Shown here piece after piece: positions 1,281 through 5,897 of a DNA stretch of 52,581 nucleotides; within the stretch, counting starts at the first letter, position 1; each line of letters opens with the position of its first letter. The stretch lies in the NCBI GenBank assembly GCA_048938855.1, contig JBHLLT010000021.1:1-52581 (forward strand). The letters are read 5' to 3'. The position numbers and the translations under genes were made by a program. The notes beneath the pieces were generated by a model, which was given only the letters and a program-made list of their open reading frames with translations, made no database searches and was not told the DNA's origin. Source of the stretch: Promethearchaeota archaeon (GTDB lineage Archaea > Asgardarchaeota > Lokiarchaeia > Sigyniarchaeales > SOKP01).

Positions 1281-2705
1281 TCAAATAATTTTCCATTGTG
1301 GCCCATCTGGAGTATCTTCAAGCTGAATCCCCACTTTTCTCAATTTTTCTCTGATGTTATCACCGAGTTCATAATTCTTTTCTTTTCTTGCCTGTTCACG
1401 AATATCTATAACAATATCCATCAATTCATTTAATTTTACATCTGACCCGACTTCAAATTTAGTGAAATCAAGTCCAAAAATTCCTAAGAGCTCTAGTAAT
1501 ATTTCTTTTGCTTGATTGAGGAGTTCCTTCTTATTATCTAATGAGGAATTTATTTTCTTAATAAATTCGTATATAGCAGCAAGAGCTTTGGGATTGTTAA
1601 AATCGTCATCCATTGCCTCTTCAAAATCATTTCTAACACTTTTAATTGCTTCATTAAGAGTTTCTTTATTTCCGCCCTTAGAATTGTCTATAGCATTTAG
1701 ACAATTTCTTATTTTTTCAATGTTATTCTTTGCATTCTCAATAACTTGAAGATTCCAATCAACTGCAGATCTATAGTGTCCAGACACAAGCCCCATTCTT
1801 ACAATAAGACCTCCATATTCATCAATCAACTCTCGGGCAGTTACATAATTTCCAAGACTTTTACTCATTTTTTTGCCGTTTAAAGTAATAAATTCAGCAT
1901 GCATCCAGTAGTTTACAAATTTTTTTCCTGTGGCTGCTTCGGATTGGGCGATTTCATTAGGGTGATGAGTTGGAATATGATCTATTCCCCCACAATGAAT
2001 ATCTAAAGTCTCTCCTAAATATTTCATTCCCATTACTGAGCATTCTAGATGCCATCCGGGATATCCTTCACCCCAAGGAGAGTCCCATCTCATAATATGG
2101 ATTTGATCCCCTTTTCTTGCGTTTAACCATAAAGCAAAATCAAAATAATTTTTTTTTAACGGATCCTGGTCTACACGTGCCTGAGCTTTTTCTTCATCAA
2201 GTTTTAATCTTCCAAGTTTTCCATAATCTTGAAATTTCGTTGTATCATAATATATATTTCCTTGTACTTCATAAGCATAACCCTTGTCTAATAAGATTTT
2301 AATGACGTCTATCATATCTGGAATAAGTGCTGTAGCTCTAGGGGAGATATTTGGTCTTTGAATATTCAGATCATCAATAACTTCCCAATACTCTTTTATT
2401 TGTATGTCAACTAATTCCCACGGATTGATCTTTTGTTCTTTTGCTCTTTTCTCAATTTTATCTTCGCCTTGATCTGCATCATCAGTTAAATGACCGACGT
2501 CAGTAAAGTTTTGAACGTGGAATACATCATAACCTTTATATGTTAAGTATCTAATAACTACGTCCCATGAGCTATATGTCCTTGCGTTTCCAATGTGCAC
2601 ATCGTCATACACAGTTTGCCCACAAGTATATATTCTAACTCGACCTTCTTCTATTGGTTTAAAAACCTCCTTTTGTCGAGTCATGGTATTATAGATTTTA
2701 AGCAT
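1281..2705 (-). CDS. cysS: Cysteine--tRNA ligase
   Basis: CGQTVYD..HIGNAR, PGWHLECS, HHPNEIAQSEA and KMSKS motifs. Confidence 0.97.
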   Translation of the reverse strand: MLKIYNTMTRQKEVFKPIEEGRVRIYTCGQTVYDDVHIGNARTYSSWDVVIRYLTYKGYDVFHVQNFTDVGHLTDDADQGEDKIEKRAKEQKINPWELVDIQIKEYWEVIDDLNIQRPNISPRATALIPDMIDVIKILLDKGYAYEVQGNIYYDTTKFQDYGKLGRLKLDEEKAQARVDQDPLKKNYFDFALWLNARKGDQIHIMRWDSPWGEGYPGWHLECSVMGMKYLGETLDIHCGGIDHIPTHHPNEIAQSEAATGKKFVNYWMHAEFITLNGKKMSKSLGNYVTARELIDEYGGLIVRMGLVSGHYRSAVDWNLQVIENAKNNIEKIRNCLNAIDNSKGGNKETLNEAIKSVRNDFEEAMDDDFNNPKALAAIYEFIKKINSSLDNKKELLNQAKEILLELLGIFGLDFTKFEVGSDVKLNELMDIVIDIREQARKEKNYELGDNIREKLRKVGIQLEDTPDGPQWKII

Positions 2706-2782: not shown

Positions 2783-5647
2783 TTAATTTTTTACTTCTAT
2801 AAAAACCTCAACGATTTTATTTTCAATTTTTAATTTCTTTATGTCTGTTTTACCTTCTAAGTTTTGAATAATAGTGTCAGCTTGTATCATTTTCTTGATA
2901 TATTTCTCATGTTTTTCTAGTGATTTTGAAATATCTTTATCAACTATTTTTAAATATAGATCAATTCGATTGTTCGTTGAGAGATTGAGTTGTTTTCTGT
3001 AATTGTTCAAATGTCTGATTAGATTTCTAGCAATACCTTCCGATCTTAATGTCGATGTAATTTTGGTGTCTAATTCAACTGTAAATTCTGACTCATCATG
3101 TTTATCAATAGTTACCTTTTTAACATTTATAGCTTCGGCTATAATTTCTAAATATTCGTTTTCAAGCTTTACTCCTTTAATGGTAAGTTCATTTAAGACT
3201 TGTCTTATTGGAATTTTTGCATTATCTCTTAATTCTAATGATCTTTTTACTATCTCTCTTGTTAATTCCATGTTTTTTAGAGTTTTAATATCAATTAAAT
3301 CTTCATTAGATTCAGGCCAAAACTCTAAATGAACTGATTTTAAATTAACAATCCCATTATTCCTAAGTTTCTGGTATATCATCTCAGAAATAAATGGTGT
3401 TAAAGGACCTAATAGTTTTGCTAAATTTGTTAATACATACGACAATGTATTCATTGCTGATAATTTTTCATTTATATTTTCACTCTTAAATCGGTTTCTG
3501 CTGTTTTTAATATACCAAGTAGAGAGATCCTCAATGAAGTTGAATAATAACCTACTAGCCTCTGATGTATCATAATCATCCATTAGTTGCGTAATATCTC
3601 GTATAAGGCTATTCAATAAACTAATCATCCATCGATCTAAAATATTATCTGATTGTAGTTTATCCGCATTAATCTCATCAATATCGATTAATGAATAAAA
3701 CTTTAACACATTAGCTAACAATAAATTAAATCTTCTATAGATTTGTTTCACTATTTCCTCTTTAAAGCTTAAATCTTGAGCCCTCATTAATTGTGATGAC
3801 ATAAGATAAATTCTTAAAGCATCAGCTCCATATTTCTCTATTATCAGGTTTGGGTCAGGATAGTTTTTTTTGGATTTTGACATTTTAGTTCCGTCTTCGC
3901 CAAGCAAATTACCATTTACTACAACATTTTTAAACGGAATTTCGTCAAATAGTAGAATTGATATTACATGCATATAGTAAAACCATGCTCTAACCTGACC
4001 AATATATTCTGATACAAAATCACTCGGGAAATTTTGCTTAAACCATTCAATATTTTCAAAAGGATAATGTTTTGCAGCATAAGGCATTGAACCCGATTCC
4101 AACCAACAGTCAAACACCTCTGATATACGATTCATTACTTTATTGCAACTTGGACATTTAAGATGGATTTTATCAACTATGTGTCTGTGTAGATCAAGAT
4201 TATCTGGAACTTCTTCAATCGCATTTTCTTGTAATTCTTTCACTGATCCAATTACTCTAATTTCATTACATTCTTCACATTCCCAGATGGGCATTGCTGT
4301 AGCCCAAAACCGATTTCTCGAAATACACCAATCAGGAGCGTTCTCTATTATCTTTTGATATCTATATGAAATTTCTTTTGGATACCAATTTATATTTTTA
4401 TTGGTTTTTAAAAGTCTCTGCTTAATTTTTTGAATGTTTATAAACCAAGCATCAAGAGCATTATATATTAATGGTGTATTACATCTATAACAGAAGGGAT
4501 ATGAATGCGTATAATCTTCTGATTCATATAAAAGATTCCGATGATGTAGATCCTCCAAGACCTCACCATCTACATCTTTAAACCATAAGCCAATCCAATC
4601 TTTTGGACCATCGGCTAACTCACCATGCTCATCAATATGTTGAATCATAGGAAGATCATACTTATTTATCATTTCATAATCAAATTCACCATAAAGTGCT
4701 ATATGAATAATTCCTGTTCCTTCTTCAGATAATACTTCATCGCCACCATCAATTACCCGATAACCTTTTTTGTCTCTCATAGTTGAAATTTGATATAAAG
4801 GTTTATACTCCTTATTTAACAATTCTTTCCCTTTAAATTCCTCAATTATTTCATATTCCTCTTTGATGTTTTCTAATTTGTTATTTATTAAGATGAAAAA
4901 TTCACCATTAACCTTTACTTTAACATATAGTTTCTTACTATTTACAGCTAAAGCCACATTTCCAATTAAAGTCCAAGGAGTTGTAGTCCACGCTAGAAGA
5001 AATGTTTTTTGTTCTTCTCTTAATTCAAATTTTGCTATAACTGATTGTTCAGTAACCTCCTTATAACTGTTATCCATAGAAATTTCAAAATTAGAGAGTG
5101 GAGTTTCACATCTTGGACAATAAAACAAGACTTTTTTACCTTTATATATAAGACCATCAGTATATATCTTTTTAAAAATATACCACACAGTTTCCATATA
5201 AGTATTATCCATAGTTTTATATGAATTATCAAAATCTATCCACTTACCCATTCGATCAACAGTTTTTTTCCATTCATTAGCATACCAAAGCACTTTTGAT
5301 CGACAAAATTCATTAAATTCTTCAACACCCATCTGATAAATTTCATTCTTCTGCCTTATATTTAAAGCTTTTTCACAAACACTTTCTATAGGAAGCCCAT
5401 GACAATCCCAACCCCATCTCCTCTCACAACGATGTCCTTTCATTGTCCAATATCTTGGGAATACATCTTTTGTTACAATGCTTAATATATTGCCATGTTG
5501 AGGTAACCCAGTAGCAAATGGAGGCCCATCATAAAATATATAAGGATTATCTTTAGGTCTTTGCTCCACACTTTCTTCAAATATTTTGTTATCCTTCCAA
5601 AAATCTATAAGTTCTATTTCCTTTTCAATATATGATATTTTAAACAC
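2783..5647 (-). CDS. ileS: Isoleucine--tRNA ligase (type 2, archaeal/eukaryote-like) with variant HIGH motif
   Basis: DGPPFATGLP, GWDCHGLPIE, WTTTPWTL, WCISRNRFW and KMSKS motifs; GTG start. Confidence 0.96.
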   Translation of the reverse strand: MFKISYIEKEIELIDFWKDNKIFEESVEQRPKDNPYIFYDGPPFATGLPQHGNILSIVTKDVFPRYWTMKGHRCERRWGWDCHGLPIESVCEKALNIRQKNEIYQMGVEEFNEFCRSKVLWYANEWKKTVDRMGKWIDFDNSYKTMDNTYMETVWYIFKKIYTDGLIYKGKKVLFYCPRCETPLSNFEISMDNSYKEVTEQSVIAKFELREEQKTFLLAWTTTPWTLIGNVALAVNSKKLYVKVKVNGEFFILINNKLENIKEEYEIIEEFKGKELLNKEYKPLYQISTMRDKKGYRVIDGGDEVLSEEGTGIIHIALYGEFDYEMINKYDLPMIQHIDEHGELADGPKDWIGLWFKDVDGEVLEDLHHRNLLYESEDYTHSYPFCYRCNTPLIYNALDAWFINIQKIKQRLLKTNKNINWYPKEISYRYQKIIENAPDWCISRNRFWATAMPIWECEECNEIRVIGSVKELQENAIEEVPDNLDLHRHIVDKIHLKCPSCNKVMNRISEVFDCWLESGSMPYAAKHYPFENIEWFKQNFPSDFVSEYIGQVRAWFYYMHVISILLFDEIPFKNVVVNGNLLGEDGTKMSKSKKNYPDPNLIIEKYGADALRIYLMSSQLMRAQDLSFKEEIVKQIYRRFNLLLANVLKFYSLIDIDEINADKLQSDNILDRWMISLLNSLIRDITQLMDDYDTSEASRLLFNFIEDLSTWYIKNSRNRFKSENINEKLSAMNTLSYVLTNLAKLLGPLTPFISEMIYQKLRNNGIVNLKSVHLEFWPESNEDLIDIKTLKNMELTREIVKRSLELRDNAKIPIRQVLNELTIKGVKLENEYLEIIAEAINVKKVTIDKHDESEFTVELDTKITSTLRSEGIARNLIRHLNNYRKQLNLSTNNRIDLYLKIVDKDISKSLEKHEKYIKKMIQADTIIQNLEGKTDIKKLKIENKIVEVFIEVKN

Positions 5648-5746: not shown

Positions 5747-5897
5747 TTTATTCATGAAGCAGGATGTGGAAACAAAAGCTAAGAAAATTCACTTCATAAA
5801 TAAATGAATTTAGATAATAATAATCGTGGATATGATCATAATTATATTTTTTACAAAACCTAAGAATTTACTGATAATATTCATAGCTTCCACATCC
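5747..5897 (-). promoter_or_regulatory. Putative structured ileS 5' leader (attenuator-like, alternative helices)
   Basis: Perfect inverted repeat 5888-5897/5762-5771; 14-bp helix (two G-U pairs) 5791-5804/5747-5760; the two helices cross. Confidence 0.65.
5810..5884 (-). CDS. Putative Ile-rich leader peptide MNIISKFLGFVKNIIMIISTIIII
   Basis: Read by hand: ATG at 5884, TAA at 5812-5810; 10 of 24 codons are Ile, with four consecutive before the stop; lies directly upstream of ileS. Confidence 0.65.
   Translation of the reverse strand: MNIISKFLGFVKNIIMIISTIIII

Follow-up and report, generated by a model that had tools for sequence, protein, structure and literature searches.

An accessory type-2 isoleucyl-tRNA synthetase with a derived QHGN signature in a genome of the Lokiarchaeia

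The present analysis concerns ileS, a gene for isoleucyl-tRNA synthetase (IleRS), on a 52,581-nucleotide stretch of DNA from a Promethearchaeota archaeon of the Lokiarchaeia (assembly GCA_048938855.1, contig JBHLLT010000021.1, positions 1 to 52,581 of the forward strand), which is referred to at its full length as the window. In the encoded protein, the HIGH signature that binds adenosine triphosphate (ATP) reads QHGN in place of HYGH. The data are probably best accounted for by a working, dispensable second IleRS of type 2 that came from a Patescibacteria-like donor, and whose signature was rebuilt from HYGH to QHGN in one young sub-lineage. QHGN is a new natural variant of the IleRS signature: the combination is not described in PMC10485003, where G/AXHH is the only non-canonical form, or in PMC13752280, which names only GIHH, and a full-text literature search combining Asgard with isoleucyl-tRNA synthetase returned nothing on it.

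Results

The signature and the family of the enzyme

The 954-residue product of ileS (Table 1) scores 826 bits against TIGR00392, the ileS equivalog model with a curated cut-off of 621, and the next-best models, MupA and MupB, mark it as type 2. Its Pfam domains are tRNA-synt_1, Anticodon_1 and the type-2 C-terminal DUF5915 (residues 813-952). Among solved structures, the best-scoring relatives are human cytosolic IleRS (716 bits), Priestia megaterium IleRS2 (688 bits) and Thermus thermophilus IleRS (671 bits), and IleRS1 structures remain below 300 bits (P. megaterium IleRS1, 299). The last approximately 100 residues contain no cysteine and form a type-2 C-terminus rather than a zinc-binding domain like that in IleRS1. 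Compared with P. megaterium IleRS2, about 78 residues are missing, the alignment skipping approximately residues 865-913 of that enzyme, and this shorter C-terminal part (window 2783-3300, minus strand) would fit a loss of the INS subdomain that PMC13752280 describes.

A first-pass annotation of the window had reported QHGN in place of HYGH alongside an intact KMSKS motif, and this was borne out: QHGN occupies residues 50-53, in the context YDGPPFATGLP-QHGN-ILSIV, KMSKS occupies residues 588-592, and, of 150 representatives of the wider type-2 family, 70 read HYGH, more than have any other signature. A signature check of the TIGR00392 type likewise found KMSKS present and HxGH converted to QHGN, with both of its histidines gone and the glycine kept. 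The G/AXHH class is defined by glycine or alanine at position 1 and histidine at position 3, where the window ileS has glutamine and glycine. A sequencing slip is excluded, as QHGN recurs in 15 protein clusters of 79-94% identity that come from independent metagenomes. The same annotation had singled out the editing loop as deviant with its aspartate retained. The deviation and the aspartate stand, since HMMER alignment to the human and P. megaterium enzymes places Asp323 at the conserved editing aspartate in a loop one residue shorter, and the editing histidine and the WTTTPWT threonines are also present; however, the loop is not special to the window ileS, being the norm of the whole Asgard clade, HYGH members included.

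QHGN as a derived state

The 121 protein clusters gathered around the window ileS (57-94% identity) comprise 86 with HYGH, 15 with QHGN, eight with HYGN, one with HYGQ and 11 that are N-terminally truncated, and the QHGN clusters are, without exception, the nearest relatives of the window ileS. Twelve QHGN rows make up one branch of the clade tree (support 99). These counts and this branch show that QHGN was derived from an ancestral HYGH within one young subclade, so that the motif, which might have proved to be the norm of the lineage, is neither the clade norm nor a lone oddity. A thirteenth QHGN row, P0015, adjoins a HYGH row in the clade tree, and two origins of QHGN were considered for this reason; they were rejected in favor of the simpler reading of one origin plus recombination, as P0015 is a mosaic. 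Both halves of its catalytic core (residues 31-150 and 511-600) match the QHGN protein P0005 at 97-100% identity, but for its CP1 domain and parts of the C-terminal region the closer matches are HYGH relatives, P0018 and P0016 among them, which suggests recombination between variants within a population. The clade tree implies at least two to three further losses of the fourth histidine alone, to HYGN or HYGQ. In the wider family, serine, threonine or asparagine stands at position 4 in approximately 18 of 137 IleRS2 representatives, histidine at position 2 in 12 and G/AXHH in 26, and glutamine at position 1 occurs in none of the 150 family representatives. Since changes of the kind seen at positions 2 and 4 have counterparts and the glutamine at position 1 has none, Gln50 is the unusual element of QHGN.

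Substitutions that accompany QHGN

A comparison of 13 QHGN with 82 HYGH full-length proteins yielded only eight fixed differences at HYGH-conserved positions, namely H50Q, Y51H, H53N, F57I, I90V, K208E, I581L and A583G. The switch thus involved only five fixed replacements outside the motif itself, of which three adjoin the two signature motifs. Six of the eight diagnostic positions fall within the 34 of 583 conserved positions that flank both motifs (hypergeometric 6.5e-7, a descriptive value, as the windows were picked post hoc). Ile57 occurs in none of the 82 HYGH proteins; it is seen together with Asn53 in the QHGN clade, a HYGN clade of five members and a separate HYGN row (P0091). Position 90, an invariant isoleucine in HYGH proteins, is valine or threonine in most proteins with Asn53. 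A phylogenetically independent-pairs test of H53N against F57I and I90V/T had only four supported pairs, three in the same direction and none in the opposite one (median p approximately 0.25), and a coupling of Asn53 with changes at 57 and 90 is suggestive only. Residues His581 and Leu583 of the T. thermophilus enzyme (-10 and -8 from the KMSKS lysine) tune mupirocin binding (PMC7191050); they align with Asn578 and Asn580 here, which are identical in the QHGN and HYGH forms.

Selection on the QHGN enzyme

The ratio of nonsynonymous to synonymous substitution rates (dN/dS), computed by the Nei-Gojobori method, was 0.09-0.20 in 21 QHGN pairs as compared with 0.09-0.19 in 10 HYGH pairs, the synonymous distance (dS) reaching 0.88 inside the QHGN group. 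Mean pairwise identity within the QHGN group is 92% for the catalytic core, 84% for CP1 and 76% for the C-terminal part, and a comparably diverged HYGH set gives the same ranking (89%, 82% and 72%). KMSKS, WDCHGLPIE, WTTTPWT and the editing histidine and aspartate are all kept in the QHGN group. By these measures, the window ileS is not decaying and has remained under ordinary purifying selection since the motif changed. A dead synthetic site is unlikely, given that the synthetic core is the most conserved part over a large divergence, and the QHGN enzyme is most likely active.

A second copy that can be lost

The host genome (3.95 Mb, 93 contigs, 30% G+C) contains, as the first-pass annotation had surmised, a further ileS. 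A genome-wide TIGR00392 scan placed two genes above the cut-off, the second being a gene on contig C34 for a protein of 1048 residues, 33% identical and with the signature GPPYTTGSIHLGT (HLGT). Contigs C1 and C34 both lie within the normal composition of the host genome, in which contamination is limited to small high-G+C contigs. The HLGT type corresponds to the archaeal IleRS-A clade of PMC13752280 and is read by all six Asgard IleRS-A copies that were extracted (that of the host genome and five others). The window ileS is therefore a second copy beside a vertical, archaeal-type IleRS-A. The 'chromosome' CP070831.1 was considered as proof of both copies on one closed molecule and was dropped, because it is scaffolded and 100-N gaps cut ileS itself. 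ARAGORN detected only 13 tRNAs in the host genome, probably having missed intron-containing genes. As a separate observation, the C-terminus of the host IleRS-A (P0122; L002 1285-1450, minus strand) reads CPNKDC...CPHC, a possible four-cysteine zinc ribbon; IleRS-A has been described as being without the IleRS1 zinc-binding domain (PMC13752280).

When the ileS model was applied genome by genome, both types, the 954-residue form and the 1048-residue IleRS-A, were found in all six QHGN genomes (the host and five others) and in four of seven HYGH genomes, the other three having only the 954-residue type. HYGH genomes in which no IleRS-A was found are G174 (100% complete), G195/G228 (95% complete) and G231, and since no ileS other than the HYGH form was found in G174, the 954-residue family would be a competent synthetase. 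Conversely, only IleRS-A is present in three genomes of the same genus, G008 and G171 (99% complete) and G189. In G189 (L045, G189:C736, 1283-1527), the leader and ileS have been deleted, so that the DUF5682-like gene and the cysteinyl-tRNA synthetase (CysRS) gene, cysS, lie 243 nucleotides apart, and a remnant encoding 46 C-terminal ileS residues (54% identical) persists between them, which is direct evidence of ileS loss by deletion. Together with the IleRS-A-only genomes, this deletion establishes that the type-2 ileS is dispensable in the host genus.

Two side observations bear on the distribution of IleRS types. In the QHGN genome ABR05 (L050, G224:C31 nt 1802), codon 371 of the IleRS-A gene, which is glutamate in the host IleRS-A (KFEGMY), is a lone in-frame TAG, and the copy is otherwise well conserved (86% identical downstream of the stop). 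The TAG reflects either an error of assembly or an inactivation that happened very recently and, if real, would leave QHGN as the only intact IleRS in that genome. Two other genera of the same family (L026, G144 and L027, G183) carry a GPPTANG-type IleRS2 with GVHH or GIHH, and the query used found no HLGT-type IleRS-A in G144 or G183.

Origin of the gene

All close homologues of the window ileS are in Asgard metagenome-assembled genomes (labelled by their submitters Promethearchaeota, Lokiarchaeota, Hodarchaeota, Thorarchaeota and Hermodarchaeota). A search of 1.8 billion representatives at 50% identity was combined with a FastTree phylogeny of 172 rows, most of them without names and with the eukaryotic rows unlabelled, which was rooted on the HLGT rows of IleRS-A. 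The tree is layered, with IleRS-A outermost, then a GPPTANG type-2 group, to which the G(I/V)HH forms and the IleRS of numerous other Asgard families belong, and innermost a GPPFATG group containing the window ileS clade; the window ileS thereby falls inside the PPFATG group of IleRS2, apart from IleRS-A. The successive sister groups on the path to the window ileS have supports of 81-99 and consist largely of proteins of about 1150 residues, the named relatives of which are Patescibacteria (Paceibacterota, Sungbacteria, Nomurabacteria, Taylorbacteria and Parcubacteria). A language-model look-up for ileS and the adjacent cysS also points to Patescibacteria, as a lead only. Nested among Patescibacteria-type IleRS2, the window ileS clade reads as being of horizontal origin from a Patescibacteria-like donor, in agreement with the horizontal transfer that the first-pass annotation had envisaged. 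In their own right, the Patescibacteria IleRS2 of about 1150 residues (P0123, P0124, P0125, P0128 and P0133) carry a histidine-phosphatase domain of approximately 190 residues (PF00300, PGAM-like) inserted in the catalytic domain, near the point that corresponds to residues 477-483 of the window ileS; more than 100 clusters carry it, and we know of no description of such a fusion.

Leader and neighborhood

An isoleucine-rich upstream open reading frame (uORF) precedes all seven QHGN genes and all five close HYGH genes for which upstream DNA was compared, ending always in S(T/V/E)III(I/R), and the sole-copy HYGH gene of G174 (70% identical) has the same uORF and the same inverted repeat upstream; no Ile-rich uORF lies upstream of the IleRS-A gene. 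The first-pass annotation had coupled the leader with the variant enzyme, a pairing that does not hold: as the uORF stands before HYGH and QHGN genes alike, the leader is an old property of this ileS lineage and not a partner of QHGN. Rfam at gathering thresholds gave no match in the whole window, hence no known riboswitch or T-box before ileS. The gene order is DUF5682-like gene, leader, ileS and cysS, the upstream gene being kept in eight loci and cysS in all eight loci that reach past ileS. The neighbors, which are the same in all related loci, comprise cysS, the DUF5682-like protein, an AAA ATPase, a weak SRPBCC match, an aminotransferase and small GTPase modules; by annotation of these neighbors, no biosynthetic gene cluster lies in or beside the ileS locus, so that a self-resistance role of the mupM type is unsupported. 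The cysS gene encodes the only CysRS found in the host genome. In genomes of the same genus that lack the type-2 ileS, the CysRS is only 41-42% identical, and G156 has both kinds (L046, L047, L048, L044). The type of CysRS is therefore polymorphic within one genus, and cysS may have arrived together with ileS.

Table 1. Positions of ileS, its diagnostic residues and its flanking elements in the window.
Feature	Position	Strand	Remarks
ileS, accessory type-2 isoleucyl-tRNA synthetase (P0001)	2783..5647	-	954 residues, GTG start; TIGR00392 and Pfam
Signature QHGN for HYGH, residues Q50-H51-G52-N53	5489..5500	-	codons CAA CAT GGC AAT
Ile57, one helical turn after Asn53	5477..5479	-	Phe or Leu in all 82 HYGH relatives
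Val90, just after WDCHGLPIE	5378..5380	-	Ile in all 82 HYGH relatives
Editing-site loop GTGIIHIALYGEFD, residues 310-323	4679..4720	-	His and Asp kept; one residue shorter than usual
Leu581-Leu582-Gly583, strand into the KMSKS loop	3899..3907	-	Ile-Leu-Ala in HYGH relatives
KMSKS, intact, residues 588-592	3872..3886	-	invariant (100%) within the QHGN group
Ile-rich leader ORF MNIISKFLGFVKNIIMIISTIIII (then stop), upstream of ileS	5810..5884	-	kept upstream of QHGN and HYGH orthologues
cysS, 77 nucleotides downstream of ileS, same strand	1281..2705	-	Pfam tRNA-synt_1e, DALR_2

Discussion

A model for the origin and working of the QHGN enzyme may be constructed from these data. This model proposes that an ancestor of this Lokiarchaeia lineage acquired a type-2 (HUP-2), 'eukaryote-like' ileS of the PPFATG subtype from a Patescibacteria-like donor, and that in one young sub-lineage the ATP-binding signature then changed from HYGH to QHGN, with repacking at F57I (in the HIGH helix), I90V, I581L and A583G. 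Catalysis would have been retained, so that isoleucyl adenylate (Ile-AMP) is still formed, possibly with the side-chain amides of Gln50 and Asn53 taking over from the imidazole N-H donors by which ATP is normally contacted in the transition state, and with some help from His51. The smaller side chains may have been repacked by Ile57 and Val90, and the strand leading to KMSKS adjusted by Leu581 and Gly583. Expression would proceed through the Ile-codon leader, as in the HYGH sisters, such that the level of enzyme rises as charging of tRNA(Ile) falls. As to what the rebuilt pocket does, the leading guess is an alteration of the kinetics at the ATP or adenylate site, which would be tolerated because IleRS-A is also present. 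Precedents exist for the loss of signature histidines, as the bacterial tryptophanyl-tRNA synthetase (TrpRS) has the signature TIGN (PMC10201369), Asgard IleRS-A reads HLGT, some IleRS2 representatives have serine, threonine or asparagine at position 4, and IleRS2 tolerates a catalytic histidine moved to position 3 (PMC10485003).

Several points weigh against this model. In several class I enzymes, mutation of the first histidine of HIGH cuts activation approximately 1000-fold (quoted in PMC10485003), and none of the 150 family representatives has made the substitution of Gln50. Further, QHGN was in no case found as the sole IleRS, as each of the six QHGN genomes also has IleRS-A, and a weakened enzyme shielded by redundancy would yield the same pattern. 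The active site is also unusual in more than one way. Residues 543-552 (window 3992-4021, minus strand) read EYIGQVRAWF across the whole Asgard clade of 954-residue proteins, HYGH members included, where the IleRS norm is EGxDQTRGWF, so that the aspartate before glutamine has become glycine; we take this block to contact the ribose of Ile-AMP. In addition, the idea that amides replace the histidines would draw on analogy and on tyrosyl-tRNA synthetase mutagenesis in the Fersht laboratory (1985), in which asparagine and glutamine reportedly could replace the two signature histidines in part.

Alternative scenarios may be weighed against the same observations. A possible one, of fairly low probability, is compensated drift under redundancy, in which a mildly harmful change of the signature was tolerated and then patched nearby, leaving a slower, usable enzyme with no new advantage. 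The retention of IleRS-A in every QHGN genome, when three of seven HYGH genomes show only the 954-residue type, would be expected on this scenario, and the linked changes do resemble repacking around smaller side chains. However, six of six versus four of seven is not a significant difference (p approximately 0.12 by hand calculation), and the genomes, being related, are not independent. The rebuilt core is, moreover, more conserved than that of comparable HYGH sisters (92% versus 89%), and P0015 has both halves of the QHGN-type core, at 97-100% identity, in a HYGH-like body, which suggests that the core has been kept or spread as a unit. It is highly improbable that the protein has become a pseudo-enzyme or taken up a new function, no longer activating isoleucine and serving only in tRNA binding, editing or regulation. 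Such a fate would be in keeping with the loss of both signature histidines and with the alteration of the second conserved, ribose-binding block, but no region is better conserved than the synthetic core, KMSKS and the motifs of the amino-acid pocket are invariant, dN/dS is unchanged, and EYIGQVRAWF is found also in HYGH forms that serve as the sole IleRS.

An unlikely scenario, in line with the inducible, inhibitor-resistant second copy raised by the first-pass annotation, is insensitivity to an inhibitor, whereby QHGN protects the spare enzyme from a mupirocin-like mimic of Ile-AMP and the leader induces it when a sensitive IleRS-A is blocked. Type-2 enzymes are intrinsically more resistant to mupirocin, and the IleRS-A of Methanothermobacter and of a Woesearchaeote is sensitive (PMC13752280). 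The Bacillus pair works in this manner, with ileS2 induced approximately 70-fold by mupirocin (bioRxiv 10.1101/2022.02.09.479832). In addition, the substitutions linked with QHGN line the HIGH-KMSKS channel, where the nonanoic tail of mupirocin lies (PMC7191050), and the fourth histidine was lost repeatedly in the clade, each time with similar neighboring changes, which hints at a recurring pressure. However, the link between altered HIGH motifs and mupirocin hyper-resistance, which the first-pass annotation had extended to QHGN, was drawn in bacteria for signatures of the GVHH/GIHH type (G/AXHH), and the sole proven mechanism is that of a bulky histidine at position 3 clashing with mupirocin (PMC10485003). 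As QHGN keeps glycine at that position, this mechanism does not carry over. Further, resistance may already be present in the HYGH form, a type-2 enzyme with Phe44 and a eukaryote-like Asn578; the leader is common to QHGN and HYGH genes; no biosynthetic cluster lies beside ileS; and no inhibitor is known in these sediments. A link of QHGN to resistance is thus only modestly likely. It would be a bolder and rather improbable proposal that Gln50 or the histidine at position 2 makes the transition-state contact, QHGN being a third natural class I signature in IleRS that was fixed by blunting an Ile-AMP-mimicking inhibitor of anoxic sediments.

The working, dispensable second enzyme proposed here may be compared with known systems. 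The closest is the ileS1/ileS2 pair of the Bacillaceae, in which a fast housekeeping enzyme is accompanied by an inducible, resistant type-2 enzyme, as in P. megaterium with IleRS1 and a stress-induced IleRS2 (bioRxiv 10.1101/2022.02.09.479832). Both systems combine a HUP-1-type with a type-2 enzyme in one genome, and in both the type-2 gene is patchily distributed and preceded by a leader that responds to tRNA(Ile) charging, which here is predicted. However, the Asgard partner is an archaeal IleRS-A rather than IleRS1, its leader is an Ile-codon uORF rather than a T-box, and some Asgard relatives have the type-2 enzyme as the only IleRS found. The G/AXHH IleRS2 of Deinococcus radiodurans and Streptomyces griseus (PMC10485003) are likewise type-2 enzymes maintained in nature that have lost the first signature histidine, but they swap positions 1 and 3, and the histidine at position 3 clashes with mupirocin, whereas QHGN has glutamine, histidine, glycine and asparagine in order. 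The TIGN of TrpRS (PMC10201369) and the HLGT of IleRS-A are found in active class I synthetases that naturally do without one or both of the signature histidines, and TIGN also has asparagine at position 4; these are, however, other enzymes or families in which the variant is the norm, in contrast to a recent change within a canonical clade. Eukaryotic cytosolic IleRS (human 9w01, yeast 7d5c and Candida 6ldk) include the best-scoring solved relative, the human enzyme, and share the PPFATGLP-HYGH-IL context, which is the Asgard ancestral state, and the same pocket-closing phenylalanine (PMC7191050). Yet the eukaryotic enzymes have a greater length, with the INS subdomain and C-terminal extensions retained, and the Asgard clade groups with Patescibacteria and not visibly with eukaryotes, whose rows in the tree are unlabelled.

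To our knowledge, class I synthetases are regarded as hardly able to do without the first histidine of HIGH, and in IleRS the G/AXHH swap is the only escape on record. Here, a natural lineage in which the first histidine has become glutamine and the fourth has been lost has been under selection over a substantial divergence (dS to 0.88). Close sister genes that differ by the motif and only five other fixed positions amount to a natural experiment, in which a few swaps could reveal how the transition state is stabilized without the signature histidines, as well as any change in inhibitor binding. If QHGN does blunt an inhibitor, it would be the first sign of an arms race over synthetase inhibitors in Asgard archaea, by a route to resistance distinct from G/AXHH. 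Finally, within one family, Asgard archaea mix three solutions, namely IleRS-A only, both enzymes, and type 2 only, and this mix bears on the exchange of synthetase genes between archaea and ultra-small bacteria.

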